Below, in pieces: positions 9,053 through 58,255 of a stretch of 64,000 nt of DNA. Source of the stretch: a virus (Duplodnaviria > Caudoviricetes); the IMG/VR virus record IMGVR_UViG_3300001580_000006, positions 96,001 through 160,000 of that record. One strand, given 5' to 3'. The first letter of the stretch is position 1. Each line of letters starts with the position of its first letter. The translations under genes and the position numbers were made by a program. Below the pieces are notes generated by a model that was not told the DNA's origin, searched no databases, and worked only from the letters and a program-made list of their open reading frames with translations.

Positions 9053-9341
9053 GGTTTCTATCCTCCAATATTTTGGTTAGTTGTTTTACTAAATGCTGTA
9101 TAGTTCTTATCTTGCGATTCTTATGAGGCTTTTTACTGTATGACTCAACAAATTTATTTACAAGCTCTACGAGCTGATCATGGAATTTACCCATGTCAGA
9201 GTTAGATGCCCACACCCTGGTCACGTCGCTAAGACTAATACGGTTGGCTATAATAGTCTCATCCTCTTTTATCAGCTTATGCCCCTCGACGACCTGACAG
9301 TCAGGATAAGAATACAGCGCAAGCTTAATTACATATGGCAT
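8814..9341 (-). CDS. hypothetical protein (3' part overlaps the SpoVG-like gene in another frame)
   Basis: Fills the gap between the polymerase and SpoVG-like genes. Confidence 0.45.
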   Translation of the reverse strand: MPYVIKLALYSYPDCQVVEGHKLIKEDETIIANRISLSDVTRVWASNSDMGKFHDQLVELVNKFVESYSKKPHKNRKIRTIQHLVKQLTKILEDRNHGNQNHSKALLQRQGKSVKDSRRRNRISNRSPQHKSVAIKEPRGRKVYRVADCRADRVGKDQQQAKAKGRRVQLRGRKR

Positions 9342-45504: not shown

Positions 45505-46950
45505 CTATTGCCTACAATCTGAGCTTTCGTATGCTCGTATGTAATCCATTACATGCTCTGACCACCCGTCAATGTGCGTCCACTTGCCATACCCAATCCC
45601 GTTCTTTTCAATAGAGACGTTGATTAGATAGTTTTCGGTAGCCCAAGAGGTGTCAGCGTTGGTTGGATCTCCTTTAGAGCCCTTGGCATCACAATCCTGT
45701 TCGTCAGTGAACACTATAACTCTATCAGCGCTACCTTCCTCTCTTTTGACGTAGTCCATAGCCTGTTTCAGGAATATTCCGCCACCGCCTAGGCTCTGCT
45801 CTGCCTTCTTTACTGCATCTATTAGAGCAAAGCCATAACGCGGAGCAACTAAAGCAGTTTGATGCACCCTAGTGTGGTCGTTGCCGGCAGTACAGTAGAT
45901 CCGTGCATCCACACACCGTTCTCTAGCAATAACAGCTAAAGCAGCAGCAACATCTAGACGATTACGGTCGGATTTGGCTGATATATTGCCGCGCATAGAG
46001 CCGGAAACATCTATGATTAAAACTGTTTTGCCTGGAAGCTTGGAGTATCCATCCAAGTATTTCAACATTGCTTGCTCAATCTTGTTTTCCCACTGCGGGG
46101 CAAACTGAGCAGCTGATATGAACTGGAATGGTAGCACCATGCCGGGCTTCAGCCTATCTAAGGCTTCGAACACTAGCTTCTCGTTAACTCCGTTGTCTTT
46201 GAAGTTACGCAGATTGCGTAGTACAGCCAAAGCTCCCATCTTATTGTTGGATAAAAGACGCTCAAACTCTAGGCGCTTAGCTTCCTTGTCGTTGCCACAG
46301 GCTGATATGGCTACTTCCCAGGTGTCTGGGGTAGCTAAGGTGTTGGCGCGTAGCCTTCCCCAAAGAGTAGCCTGGTCCTCATCAATAGGACGAGGGTGCA
46401 CTAAGCATAGAACATCGCGTAGCTTTATTACCTTGTCATCGCCGCGGTATTTAGCCAACTGATACTCGTCGAAGCGGCGGAACGCACTAGCTAAACCAAC
46501 CTTGAACTGCCAAGGAATCGGCACCCTCTTGCCATATCTGTGATCAGCAGTACGCTTAGGCTTAGCTTGTCTATTTATACCCCAATATATGGCTAATATT
46601 TCTGAGAGCTCGTCTGCTCTTTTAATAATCTCCGGAAGCAGTTGCCCAACCAGCTTCTTATGCTCTGGGTGTCTTAGCATTAGGTTGGCTATAAGCAGCG
46701 GTGCATGACGGATTTTCATATCCAGTCTGGTCTCAATAGCCATATTGAATACGCTATGAGGATCTACTTGGCCTATTAGCTCAGCTATACGCTCGGCTAT
46801 AGACATACCACCCTCATAGAATGAATCTTCCCAAAGCATGCACGCCATTAGTGACCGCCTCAGTTTCTTTTCAGCTGAAATCATGGCGGCATTTGCGCCA
46901 CCAGCTGTATAAACTGGAGGTCTTTTGGCAGTTGTGTTTATTCTCGCCAT
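45505..46950 (-). CDS. Ro60/Rsr TROVE-vWA RNA-binding protein (start at MARINTT, RBS AAGGGAG)
   Basis: LRR...CMLWED.FYE.G, R.APL, RADE, FDEYQLAKY, LRDVL...HP.P, PDTWE, ALAVLRNLRN, vWA DVSGSM and TDEQ. Confidence 0.92.
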   Translation of the reverse strand: MARINTTAKRPPVYTAGGANAAMISAEKKLRRSLMACMLWEDSFYEGGMSIAERIAELIGQVDPHSVFNMAIETRLDMKIRHAPLLIANLMLRHPEHKKLVGQLLPEIIKRADELSEILAIYWGINRQAKPKRTADHRYGKRVPIPWQFKVGLASAFRRFDEYQLAKYRGDDKVIKLRDVLCLVHPRPIDEDQATLWGRLRANTLATPDTWEVAISACGNDKEAKRLEFERLLSNNKMGALAVLRNLRNFKDNGVNEKLVFEALDRLKPGMVLPFQFISAAQFAPQWENKIEQAMLKYLDGYSKLPGKTVLIIDVSGSMRGNISAKSDRNRLDVAAALAVIARERCVDARIYCTAGNDHTRVHQTALVAPRYGFALIDAVKKAEQSLGGGGIFLKQAMDYVKREEGSADRVIVFTDEQDCDAKGSKGDPTNADTSWATENYLINVSIEKNGIGYGKWTHIDGWSEHVMDYIRAYESSDCRQ

Positions 46951-46968
46951 AGTCTTACTCCCTTTTTG

Positions 46969-47468
46969 ACTAGGTAATTTGATTGGCCCCGCCGTACACG
47001 GCTTTACGTGCGACAACAAAAGGCTTAGTATACTATACCTATTGCTGGTTTTGATCAAACTAACCGCGGGTTATTGTTCGGCTTGCCAGATTCTCACTGG
47101 ACGCTCGTCCTTACGGACATTCAATATAGTGTTGCTGCCCCACTATTATCGGCTGTGGGTCACCATCATACAAAGTGCCATTTTGCGACTAAGCACCATG
47201 GCTGGTTGCGCATACAGTCTTTCAGCGCTACGTCATTTGGCGGACATACCAAGCCTAGCCGGTTTTCGGTGGACTGCAATCTTACCTTCCATGGTCTTTG
47301 GTCAACCTCTACCACGCGCAGCGACTTTCAGGTGCTAGGCATCTGTATGGAAGACTGCGTAGACAAACCGGCAAAATTTAACGCTACTCGGCATAGTCGA
47401 ATCGGGCAGTACTGCGGTTTCCCGCGTGCTCTGATTAAGGGCGAAGTAACCCAACTCTTCACCTGAGT
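46969..47468 (-). ncRNA. putative ~500-nt structured RNA starting with a Y-RNA-type 5' motif
   Basis: 5' CAGGUGAAGAGUUGGGUUACUUCG; no credible ORF on the transcribed strand; many local hairpins; abuts the Ro60 RBS. Confidence 0.55.
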
Positions 47469-47480
47469 AGCTTTTCTAAC

Positions 47481-47550
47481 TTGCCCGGAATAAGCGACTT
47501 GAGTATATTATCGTTTACAGTCGAAGTAACCCAAGCCTACACCAGGGCAA
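47481..47550 (-). ncRNA. minimal Y RNA (Ro60-binding helix, no tRNA-like domain)
   Basis: UUGCCCUGG-UGUAG-GCUUGGGU-UACUUCG...ACUCAAGU-CGCUUAUU-CCGGGCAA; the ends pair; lies between the promoter and the Ro60 gene. Confidence 0.75.
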
Positions 47551-55101: not shown

Positions 55102-56262
55102 TTATAGTCCATGTTTTAATTGATATTCAGGGCTTATAACTTTTAGTTGTACTCTGCCAAGTTTTGGATGCTTGCGTTCTACTGTAGGTTTCCACACTAG
55201 TCCCTCTCTTAGTTCACTAGCTAGTAATGCACTTGGTCCATTAGAGAACTCAACCATCTTGTCTTTGGCTGGCAGCTCTCCTTTATAAACTACTGGTACA
55301 AACGGTAGTCCTAACTCTTCTGCTATCTTCGTAGCCATATCGTGATTGACGTACACACCTGCAATCATTATGTCGAAGACCCTAAAGTCGTTTTGTACTA
55401 ATTTATAAACGTTGCGAACAGCAGCTCCTACCGATGGTCCTATAACCTCTGCCTGCACTGCGATATCTCCACTATCGAAGCCGAACGAGTTGCTTTCAAA
55501 GAACTTACGCAGTCGTTTCTCTACGTCCCAGCGTTTAGAAACCTCTACCCAGTGATTCTTGCCATCGAAGTTTTTGCCTACGCCAAGCTTACGCAGCAAC
55601 CAGAGGACAGCTCTATTCCATAGTTTGCCTTCTCCAGAACGGTACTTTAGTACAGACCTAGAGCATACACCATAGACCCCATCTTTCAAATAGAACGTGG
55701 AGGAGCAGCCCTCAAGCTTTTCTGTGGCAACATATTCGCCAGGGAATTGGTCGAATACATCTGGATAATTCTGCCACCTTTCAGAATCAGTCTGAGGGAT
55801 GTGCTCTGGAAAGTGATATTTCTTCCTCGCCCAGCTAACACGCTTTAGTAAGAATCTTTGTAGCTTGCCATATGATTCTCTCTTATCTAGCTCCTCAAGA
55901 GGTTCGTACTTCGCTATATCATAGAACTTACTAGCGTCATCACCTTCCTTCATACCAGCTGGGCAAGGCTGCAACAAACCCTGGGATAGAACTCCACCCA
56001 TCTTCATAGTACGTAGACGATACTCGGCTTTGTCCTTAGCACGAGCTTTTAAAAAGCCGAACTCTGGTCTATCCATTTTTAGTATGGAATCAGGAGGCAT
56101 AAAGGTAACAAGGTCGCCTACTTTATAGTTACCTTTTTGATCTATTACTTGGTAGCCAAGTACATAATATAGCTCTATGCGGTCTTTGCCTTCAATTGGC
56201 TCAACCTTTAGGATTTTGGTAATAGGGCAAGTAAACGTGCTCATTGGTGGTTCTTTTTCCAC
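55102..56262 (-). CDS. RNA ligase (Rnl2/DRB0094-like)
   Basis: I..V.PI...DRIE, SQGL, IP.TD.ER.QN, TEKLEG.S, CSR, Q.E..G, FD, VP, REG.V, LK.IS..Y. Confidence 0.88.
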   Translation of the reverse strand: MEKEPPMSTFTCPITKILKVEPIEGKDRIELYYVLGYQVIDQKGNYKVGDLVTFMPPDSILKMDRPEFGFLKARAKDKAEYRLRTMKMGGVLSQGLLQPCPAGMKEGDDASKFYDIAKYEPLEELDKRESYGKLQRFLLKRVSWARKKYHFPEHIPQTDSERWQNYPDVFDQFPGEYVATEKLEGCSSTFYLKDGVYGVCSRSVLKYRSGEGKLWNRAVLWLLRKLGVGKNFDGKNHWVEVSKRWDVEKRLRKFFESNSFGFDSGDIAVQAEVIGPSVGAAVRNVYKLVQNDFRVFDIMIAGVYVNHDMATKIAEELGLPFVPVVYKGELPAKDKMVEFSNGPSALLASELREGLVWKPTVERKHPKLGRVQLKVISPEYQLKHGL

Positions 56263-57508: not shown

Positions 57509-57639
57509 TGGTAGGGGAGCCAGGGGTCGAACCTGGAACCTCACGCTCCTAATGCGAAGTAACCCTAATCTACACTAGGCATAAGCCAGAATTAGCGACT
57601 AAGGCAACGGATGCGCTCTGCCAATTGAGCTACTCCCCT
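57509..57639 (-). ncRNA. tRNA/Y-RNA chimera 1: 76-nt tRNA body plus 55-nt Y-type insert (57556..57610)
   Basis: AGGGGAG/CTCCCCT-ACCA, intact D and T arms; insert contains AGUGUAGAUUAGGGUUACUUC paired with CCUUAGUCGCUAAUU. Confidence 0.8.
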
Positions 57640-57866
57640 ACATTTAAGTTTTCCTTATGTGCTTTATTGATGTACCACAATGTGGACAGTGCTGTATTCT
57701 ATAAAACTTACCAACTGTTGGTGTTATAAAAAAGTTTAGGTCATGGTCTGTCCACGGTGTGGTAATTACTCTCTGTAGCAGTATGTCCTCTGCCATATCC
57801 TTACAGCAGAACTCTATTGCAGAGACGTTCCATTTTTCTTTATAGTGTACTGTCATAACTTCCTTT

Positions 57867-58000
57867 TGGTGGGGGAGGACCGATTTGAACGGCCAACCTA
57901 CGGATTAATAGTCGAAGGATTCCTAGTCTTCACCAGGCTTACGCCGGGACCGGCGACTAGGCCTTTGTTTCGTTGCTCTAGCCAGTTGAGCTACTCCCCC
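57867..58000 (-). ncRNA. tRNA/Y-RNA chimera 2: 77-nt tRNA-Asn-like body plus 57-nt Y-type insert (57914..57970)
   Basis: GGGGGAG/CTCCCCC-ACCA, intact D and T arms; insert contains GGUGAAGACUAGGAAUCCUUC paired with CCUAGUCGC. Confidence 0.8.
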
Positions 58001-58226: not shown

Positions 58227-58255
58227 ATTATATCACAAAATTGTTTAAAAGTCAA
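58227..58255 (-). promoter_or_regulatory. promoter upstream of the tRNA/Y chimeras, nadD and RNA ligase
   Basis: TTGACT-17 nt-TATAAT with TG extension. Confidence 0.8.

Follow-up and report, generated by a model that had tools for sequence, protein, structure and literature searches.

How does an RNA with the body of a tRNA come to carry, on its anticodon stem, a module of the type found in Ro60-binding Y RNAs? This question is raised by two minus-strand elements, RNA A (57867..58000, 134 nt) and RNA B (57509..57639, 131 nt), in a 64,000-nt stretch of phage DNA (the window) that comprises bases 96001-160000 of the 223,464-bp IMG/VR phage record IMGVR_UViG_3300001580_000006. The closest known RNAs are the bacterial YrlA Y RNAs, which have been likened to a circularly permuted tRNA whose acceptor is closed and offers no free CCA (Wang et al. 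2018, bioRxiv 10.1101/312249). We find that A and B belong to a small, previously undescribed group of phage Y RNAs in which the strand order is the reverse of that of known YrlA. From their sequences and those of their homologs, we consider A and B likely to belong to the YrlA lineage of Y RNAs while having true tRNA topology; their transcription, processing, Ro60 binding and function are steps that we infer.

A tRNA body with a Ro60-type module

Both RNAs present their elements in the order acceptor 5′ strand, D arm, module, anticodon element, T arm, acceptor 3′ strand and ACCA. In RNA A, a perfect 7-bp acceptor stem (GGGGGAG/CUCCCCC; 58000-57994 with 57877-57871) is followed by ACCA (57870-57867), the D arm (57991-57975) reads GCUC-AACUGGCUA-GAGC and the T arm (57894-57878) GGCCG-UUCAAAU-CGGUC. 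RNA B likewise has a perfect 7-bp acceptor (AGGGGAG/CUCCCCU; 57639-57633 with 57519-57513) and ACCA (57512-57509), with the D arm GCUC-AAUUGGCA-GAGC (57630-57615) and the T arm CCAGG-UUCGACC-CCUGG (57536-57520). The 4-bp D stems bear GG-containing loops and the 5-bp T stems UUCRANN loops, and the tRNA-invariant nucleotides U8, A14, G18G19, U54U55C56 and A58 as well as G53-C61 are present in both. A first-pass annotation of the window, made from the sequence alone, had already described the perfect acceptors, the encoded CCA and the D and T arms, and its description is borne out.

An insert of 55-57 nt on the 5′ side of the anticodon stem sets A and B apart from the tRNA cloverleaf (7-bp acceptor, D, anticodon and T arms, discriminator and CCA), to which they conform only if this insert is allowed for. 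On the unaltered sequence, ARAGORN and the Rfam tRNA model called neither A nor B, only the two ordinary tRNAs of the window, tRNA-Met and tRNA-Pro. Upon deletion of 57914..57970, ARAGORN reported A as a 77-nt tRNA-Asn(att), and upon deletion of 57556..57610, B as a 76-nt tRNA-Leu(tag), in agreement with the cloverleafs of 76 and 77 nt proposed in the first pass. The accompanying likeness of A to tRNA-Asn stands as well; that of B to tRNA-Pro does not, as the anticodon of B is UAG, Leu-like yet combined with a class I variable loop. We also rejected an origin of the B anticodon arm from the tRNA-Pro of this phage, since the same arm is conserved in two homologs from other loci (L038 and L175; locus numbers are used below where homologs have to be told apart). 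An anticodon with A34, as in the AUU of A, is atypical for a bacterial tRNA, and so is the combination of a Leu anticodon with a class I body, as in B.

The insert is predicted to fold into a module of helix b, an asymmetric internal loop (GUCGC opposite (U/C)G(A/U)A), helix a with a bulged U, and a tetraloop. In RNA A (module at 57922..57961, minus), helix b is CCUAGUC/GACUAGG, the internal loop GCCGGUC/UGAA and helix a CCGG(C)/(G)CC-U-GG, with a bulged U that is invariant in the family described below and a GUAA tetraloop. In RNA B (57562..57605, minus), the corresponding parts are (G)CCUUAGUC/GAUUAGGG(U), GCUAAUU/UGUA and CUGG(C)/(G)CC-U-AG, again with the bulged U, closed by UUAU. Past the module, RNA A continues at 57900..57921 (minus) with a conserved linker, AAUCCUUC, and an anticodon-like element, GA-CUAUUAA-UC-CGU, which, joined by ACG at 57973-57971, gives an anticodon stem of 5 bp with a loop of 7 nt. 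Each RNA would thus be an L-shaped tRNA mimic from which the module branches off at the 5′ strand of the anticodon stem.

A 21-nt motif, GTGWAGRNTNGGRWTMCTTCG, connects these modules to Ro60. The genome contains exactly four copies, all on the minus strand: one each in A and B, and two, at 47542 and 47462, within the ~600-nt non-coding leader of a TROVE/Ro60 gene (45505..46950, minus; TROVE and vWA domains, TROVE E = 3.1e-12), which encodes a Ro60 ortholog and presumed protein partner. This sharing among A, B and the Ro60-leader RNAs exceeds chance by far. In addition, five of the six minus-strand copies of the partner sequence, AGTCGC, fall inside the motif-bearing elements. The order of the half-motifs differs between the two sites: GUCGC comes first in A and B, whose hairpins are closed by GUAA or UUAU, whereas GUGWAG comes first in the Ro60-leader hairpins. 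Both the shared bipartite motif and its reversal had been pointed out in the first pass, and both were confirmed.

In YrlA, a GNCGAAN0-1G motif has been tied to Rsr binding (Chen et al. 2014; PMC4201824). RNA A reads GGUGAAG at this place and RNA B AGUGUAG, with a C-to-U change in both and an additional A-to-U change in B; the exact GCGAAG is present in two homologs, L174 and L181, in the same alignment columns as the A/B motif. Because the A/B motif also occurs directly upstream of TROVE genes in unrelated IMG/VR contigs (L008, L013) and in L023, where three tandem units follow the published YrlA order (motif, variable region, T arm, closed acceptor hairpin, D arm, 3′ strand), we take GUGWAG to be the counterpart of GNCGAAN0-1G. 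The UUAC in the motif is probably the counterpart of the YUAY of Chen et al.

A covarying family next to TROVE genes

We scanned for a 7/7 paired acceptor, a D arm, a 55-125-nt gap and a T arm, without using the module motif. In 1.7 Mb of Ro60-linked phage loci, this structure-only scan returned 12 distinct matches, 11 of them with the module (A, B, L038, which was also fetched as L246, L175, L033, L174, L181, L202, L207 and two in L212), while 1.04 Mb of unrelated viral loci gave none. The twelfth match, at 9081-9217 (+) of L033, is a 137-nt tRNA-shaped RNA in which the acceptor pairs 7/7 and a long insert, but no Y module, separates the D from the T arm; it is situated 2.7 kb downstream of a TROVE gene.

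R1, a covariance model that we derived from the 11 module-bearing sequences, scored A at 107 bits and B at 120.8 bits, and matched in the window's own genome only A, B and ~19 ordinary tRNAs. The latter form three clusters outside the window, at 1.8-4.0 kb, 87-90 kb and 218-221 kb of the genome. R1 and further pattern scans added one member in a Clostridia metagenome-assembled genome (MAG) contig that also encodes Ro60 (L310), two units in L384 and two units in each of two crAss-like phages, cr112_1 and the cultured Bacteroides phage PhiCrAssBcn24; L189 is probably a member, too. Beyond A and B, ~12 other phage contigs or genomes thus contribute at least 15 homologs to the family. Almost all of these are encoded beside a TROVE gene and on the same strand, 100-700 nt upstream or a few hundred nt downstream; a same-strand TROVE gene lies within 4 kb in L038, L175, L174, L181, L202, L207, L212, L033, L384, cr112_1 and PhiCrAssBcn24. 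The Rfam tRNA model RF00005 spans two members, L174 and L246, from end to end (44.8 and 41.1 bits). Two other DNA-pattern searches were uninformative: a strict pattern, AGTCGC...GTGWAG...CTTCG, gave chance coding matches only in IMG/VR, and a loose one chance matches only among the matches listed.

An alignment of the 11 sequences (A3) was evaluated for 28 pairs in the acceptor, D stem, helix b, helix a and T stem. In A3, 97.4% of the cells are paired and 23 of the 28 pairs are altered on both sides; none of 500 shuffles reached these values and no slid register came near them. RNAalifold, run unaided, returned the same 28 pairs. As helices a and b had not been search criteria, their covariation constitutes independent evidence. 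The tRNA 15:48 pair also covaries in the 11 members (A-U in seven, G-C in three, G-U in one), and the U bulged from helix a, the RG that follows it and (U/C)G(A/U/C)AG are invariant. The first-pass annotation had asked for covariation and for co-occurrence with TROVE genes among homologs, and both were found: every helix covaries and at least 15 further members adjoin TROVE genes.

These data bear on the proposal that A and B are functionless, decayed tRNA pseudogenes that acquired an insertion by chance. ARAGORN and Rfam do miss the unaltered RNAs, and the anticodons are odd. However, each has a perfect acceptor stem and intact tertiary-pair nucleotides, every helix shows compensatory changes across at least 11 homologs, and the family recurs beside TROVE genes in unrelated phages, which leaves this explanation scarcely any credibility.

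In each of the 11 members, the sequence permits a 5/5 paired anticodon stem and a 7-nt loop that are correctly spaced from the T arm; in shuffled sequences, the mean is 0.86 of 11. The 5′ strand of this stem is composite, with 0-5 nt directly after the D arm and the remainder after the module. It is split 3+2 in A and 2+3 or 3+2 in B, and from 0+5 to 5+0 across the family, corresponding to branch points from 26/27 to 31/32. A fixed insertion between nucleotides 29 and 30, as given in the first pass, is therefore one of the two possible registers of B, and does not describe a site common to the family. The loop retains a U33-like position in 9 of 11 and a purine-37-like position in 11 of 11 members, while its triplet varies freely (AUU, UAG, GCU, GAU, GUU, UUG), so that an isoacceptor-type anticodon is not kept among orthologs; even the near-identical L038 and L175 differ, with AGG and GAG, respectively.

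The same features speak to the idea that A and B are intron-bearing tRNA genes whose module is excised and whose halves are joined by the phage RNA ligase, yielding working tRNA-Asn(AUU) and tRNA-Leu(UAG). Clean cloverleafs indeed result from deleting the inserts, and genes for an RNA ligase, an RlaP nucleotidyltransferase and an HD protein lie close by. However, as the branch point shifts among homologs, a splice-site structure at a fixed position is missing; group I introns are far longer than these inserts, for which no intron family gave a match at E<=10; and the anticodons that splicing would restore are unusable and unconserved. Moreover, the insert is the most conserved, covarying part of the RNAs and tracks Ro60 genes. 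Excision and ligation, which had been put forward in the first pass as an alternative, are hence disfavoured, and we regard this explanation as very unlikely.

It could also be argued that the real units are canonical YrlA RNAs read from a long transcript and that the tRNA order is an artefact of tandem repeats. R1 does match across unit borders in tandem canonical arrays, and arrays whose units have similar acceptor sequences can be read in either order. L305 6950-7456 (-), from an Acidobacteriaceae MAG, is such a tandem YrlA array, in which one unit border gives a tRNA-order reading of 174 nt with a 7/7 acceptor and no CCA. We set aside L305, L353 and many R1 matches of 120-180 nt with long helix-a "loops" as reads across the borders of tandem canonical units. 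A and B differ from such matches in several respects. They lie 227 nt apart, with a 70-aa open reading frame (ORF) preceded by a good ribosome-binding site (57644-57856, minus) in between; helix a is closed by a 4-nt loop, so the RNA ends cannot lie there; and each unit's own acceptor strands pair 7/7. In contrast, cross-border matches have helix-a "loops" of 11-60 nt and acceptors mostly paired at 2-6 of 7 positions, rarely at all seven. An artefact of this kind is highly improbable for A and B.

The first pass had described a YrlA-type module in a tRNA with an open acceptor and a free CCA, in a topology inverse to that of YrlA. This topological reading is supported by the family of at least 15 homologs, because its members adjoin TROVE genes, covary and share motifs with canonical-order YrlA units of phages and bacteria.

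The Ro60 gene, its leader RNAs and the genes around A and B

The two motif copies upstream of the Ro60 gene lie in hairpin-only Y RNAs. Y1 (47483..47548, minus), which is YrlB-like and ends in helix a, reads GCCCUGG-UGUAG-GCUUGGG-UUACUUCG...CUCAAGUC-GCUUAUU-CCGGGC. Y2 (47383..47471, minus) is composed of helix a, GCUACUC/GAGUAGC, the sequence GGUGAAG and helix b, GAGUUGGG/CCCGAUUC. From Y2 to the Ro60 start codon, ~420 nt (46960-47380, minus) form a further non-coding and strongly structured leader, which holds a third UUAGUCGC at 47190-47185 and in which we saw no T or D arm.

Elsewhere in the family, Y RNAs in tRNA order are usually accompanied by one to three such hairpin-only modules near the TROVE gene (L174 9832 and 9906; L207 2524 and 2596; L212 5349-5503; L376 5860-6140). 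In the IMG/VR loci, these modules lie between the tRNA-order RNA and the TROVE gene; in the crAss-like phage, they lie downstream of the gene. The arrangement suggests that one tRNA-like RNA and several small Y RNAs make up a fixed set.

A sigma-70-like promoter (TTGACT-17-TATAAT with an upstream TG, 11 of 12 matches; 58227..58255, minus) is predicted ~225 nt upstream of RNA A. No terminator-like site was found from this promoter down to 57200, and A and B therefore appear to be part of a polycistronic unit extending into the RNA-ligase genes. Each of them starts 4-5 nt past the stop codon of a small ORF. The 70-aa ORF between them ends in a CPHCG, zinc-ribbon-like C-terminus; it has no Pfam match and no homolog in 82 Ro60 loci. 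Downstream of A and B follow a cytidylyltransferase-like gene and, in the same direction of transcription, the RNA ligase gene (55102..56262, minus; RNA_ligase and PHA02142 OB domain), and the interval from the RNA ligase to Ro60 encodes an HD protein, two tRNAs, a vWA protein and the RlaP nucleotidyltransferase. A general link between tRNA-order Y RNAs and RNA-ligase or RlaP genes was rejected, as only L202 has such genes near Ro60.

The position of A and B raises the possibility that Ro60 has little part in their action and that they serve as decoys for, or competitive inhibitors of, host nucleases attacking the anticodon or the acceptor end, or as tRNA mimics that can be charged, with the module needed for stability only. 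Their place in the RNA-ligase operon, 10 kb from Ro60, and a 7-nt loop that keeps the U33-like and purine-37-like positions while the triplet varies are in line with this possibility, and Hughes et al. set a precedent by proposing that an anticodon nuclease is competitively inhibited by the tRNA domain of YrlA (PMC7790460). On the other hand, the loop nucleotides and the bulged U of the module are the best conserved parts and are common to the Ro60-leader hairpin RNAs, and the family is tightly linked to TROVE genes. We thus consider an action mainly without Ro60 quite unlikely; being a statement about function, it is in any case compatible with Ro60 binding.

Relation to known Y RNAs and possible roles

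A and B share with the YrlA RNAs of Salmonella Typhimurium and other bacteria and phages the tRNA-like D arm, T arm and acceptor helix, with tRNA-invariant nucleotides in the stem-loops of both these arms and a covarying 15:48 (Levitt) pair. They also share a stem with an internal loop, which is the Ro60-binding stem in YrlA and there carries (G)NCGAAG-type and YUAY-type motifs, to which the motifs of A and B may correspond, and an encoding together with Ro60 on the same strand. They differ in topology. YrlA runs from T arm through a closed acceptor-like hairpin to D arm and ends in the Ro60-binding stem formed by its 5′ and 3′ ends, whereas A and B end at a 7-bp acceptor stem with encoded ACCA, close helix a with a tetraloop (GUAA in A, UUAU in B), and keep a 7-nt anticodon-like loop. 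Salmonella YrlA is without an anticodon loop (bioRxiv 10.1101/312249).

The canonical order prevails elsewhere. Canonical-order units, often in tandem, are present at most of the 80 IMG/VR loci that we fetched with a Ro60 profile and in 83 of ~128 pattern matches at bacterial loci; in these 83 as well as in L023, L028, L042 and CcrColossus they bear the same motifs as A and B. No Rfam model matches the canonical YrlA loci. We found no description of a one-piece Y RNA in tRNA order in the literature, in a search that was incomplete and leaves its absence unproven.

Several observations weigh against the explanation that we favour for A and B. They read GUGAAG and GUGUAG rather than GNCGAAG, and although they are on the same strand as the Ro60 gene, they are 10.6-11.1 kb from its start (46950), while the published definition of YrlA places it no more than ~4 kb from a Ro60/TROVE gene of the same strand (PMC4201824). 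An encoded CCA is missing from about half of the family, suggesting that the CCA end may be non-essential. No close relative of the phage was found among GenBank phages by BLASTN of the region and tblastn of the neighbouring proteins, or by a peptide-pattern search with the RNA ligase. Finally, the literature names no functional partner for any YrlA tRNA domain.

Under the YrlA-lineage reading, transcription of A and B would start from the promoter at 58255-58227, in the RNA-ligase operon, and RNase P and 3′ trimming would release them from the polycistronic transcript as they do tRNAs. The module would bind the phage Ro60 encoded at 46950-45505, and the tRNA-shaped half, with its free CCA and anticodon-like loop, would engage a tRNA-recognising partner. 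Its most likely role would be that of a competitor or decoy for host tRNA nucleases, or of a platform for the neighbouring RNA-repair enzymes.

Known systems provide parallels for parts of this scheme. Mycobacterium smegmatis YrlA is opened by RNase P and gains CCA in vivo (PMC4201824). As proposed for A and B, the processed RNA is a Ro60-bound tRNA mimic with a free CCA; unlike them, it is of canonical order and becomes two base-paired pieces (82 and 65 nt), where A and B would each be one covalent piece. In the Thermus phage phiLo, the phage Ro60 binds, as experiments have shown, Y-like RNAs of the phage in which stems flank an internal loop with CGAA (PMC12135203). These RNAs, Yrl1 and Yrl2, resemble A and B in lying upstream of a phage Ro60 gene and in their stem-internal loop-stem architecture; however, they have a canonical 5′/3′ stem and no described tRNA body, and are thus closer to Y1 and Y2. 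Ordinary phage tRNAs, such as the ~19 elsewhere in this genome, have in common with A and B the cloverleaf, the encoded CCA, a location in operons and probably RNase P processing, but not the conserved 55-57-nt anticodon-stem module, the unusable anticodons or the Ro60 linkage.

A tRNA-like RNA family in two circularly permuted gene orders is not without parallel. Permuted two-piece tmRNA genes exist. Circularly permuted tRNA genes are known from Cyanidioschyzon merolae and an archaeon (cited in 10.1101/312249). Permuted tRNA and tmRNA are processed back to the standard form; in Y RNAs, by contrast, both orders appear to be end products, and it is the tRNA order that is unusual. On a Ro60 tree, the tRNA-order loci require at least five changes between orders, and therefore either one order can change into the other, or the RNAs are passed between phages. 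Interconversion could readily proceed via tandem units; those in tRNA order, as in L212, L384 and the crAss-like phages, represent the type of dimer from which a permuted YrlA could be cut.

A more far-reaching proposal combines these ideas: A and B would be Ro60-tethered tRNA mimics whose maturation involves RNase P together with 3′ trimming or addition of CCA and whose free CCA is used, be it charged, bound by EF-Tu, or attacked and repaired instead of host tRNAs, and they would represent the one-piece ancestor from which canonical YrlA arose via tandem duplication and permutation. Taken as a whole, we judge this proposal unlikely. If true, it would tie both the Ro60 ring and the RNA-repair enzymes of the phage directly into the arms race over tRNA targeting. 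On the role of the tRNA-like half of bacterial Y RNAs, a natural one-piece set gives a direct handle: with the CCA end and an anticodon loop in one covalent piece, one can ask whether they are used and by which enzymes. A cultured system exists in the crAss-like Bacteroides phages that carry family members, with RNAs at L391 4611-4757 and 4866-5007.

tRNA finders miss or mis-annotate such genes. In the Caulobacter phage CcrColossus, a "tRNA-Gln" annotated in GenBank (L378 3128-3195; JX100810.1 109217-109284) is part of a canonical-order YrlA unit, unit 2, in which the 7-bp acceptor GGGCGUG/CGCGUCC is accompanied by an encoded ACCA and then a 30-nt hairpin inside the acceptor loop; this unit resembles M. 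smegmatis YrlA, the type that RNase P opens. In cr112_1 (L376 2040-2132; MT774388.1), an annotated 91-nt "tRNA-Ile" located 1.9 kb upstream of the TROVE gene has normal acceptor, D and T arms and an anticodon arm extended to an 11-bp stem, and may be an odd tRNA or a mimic.
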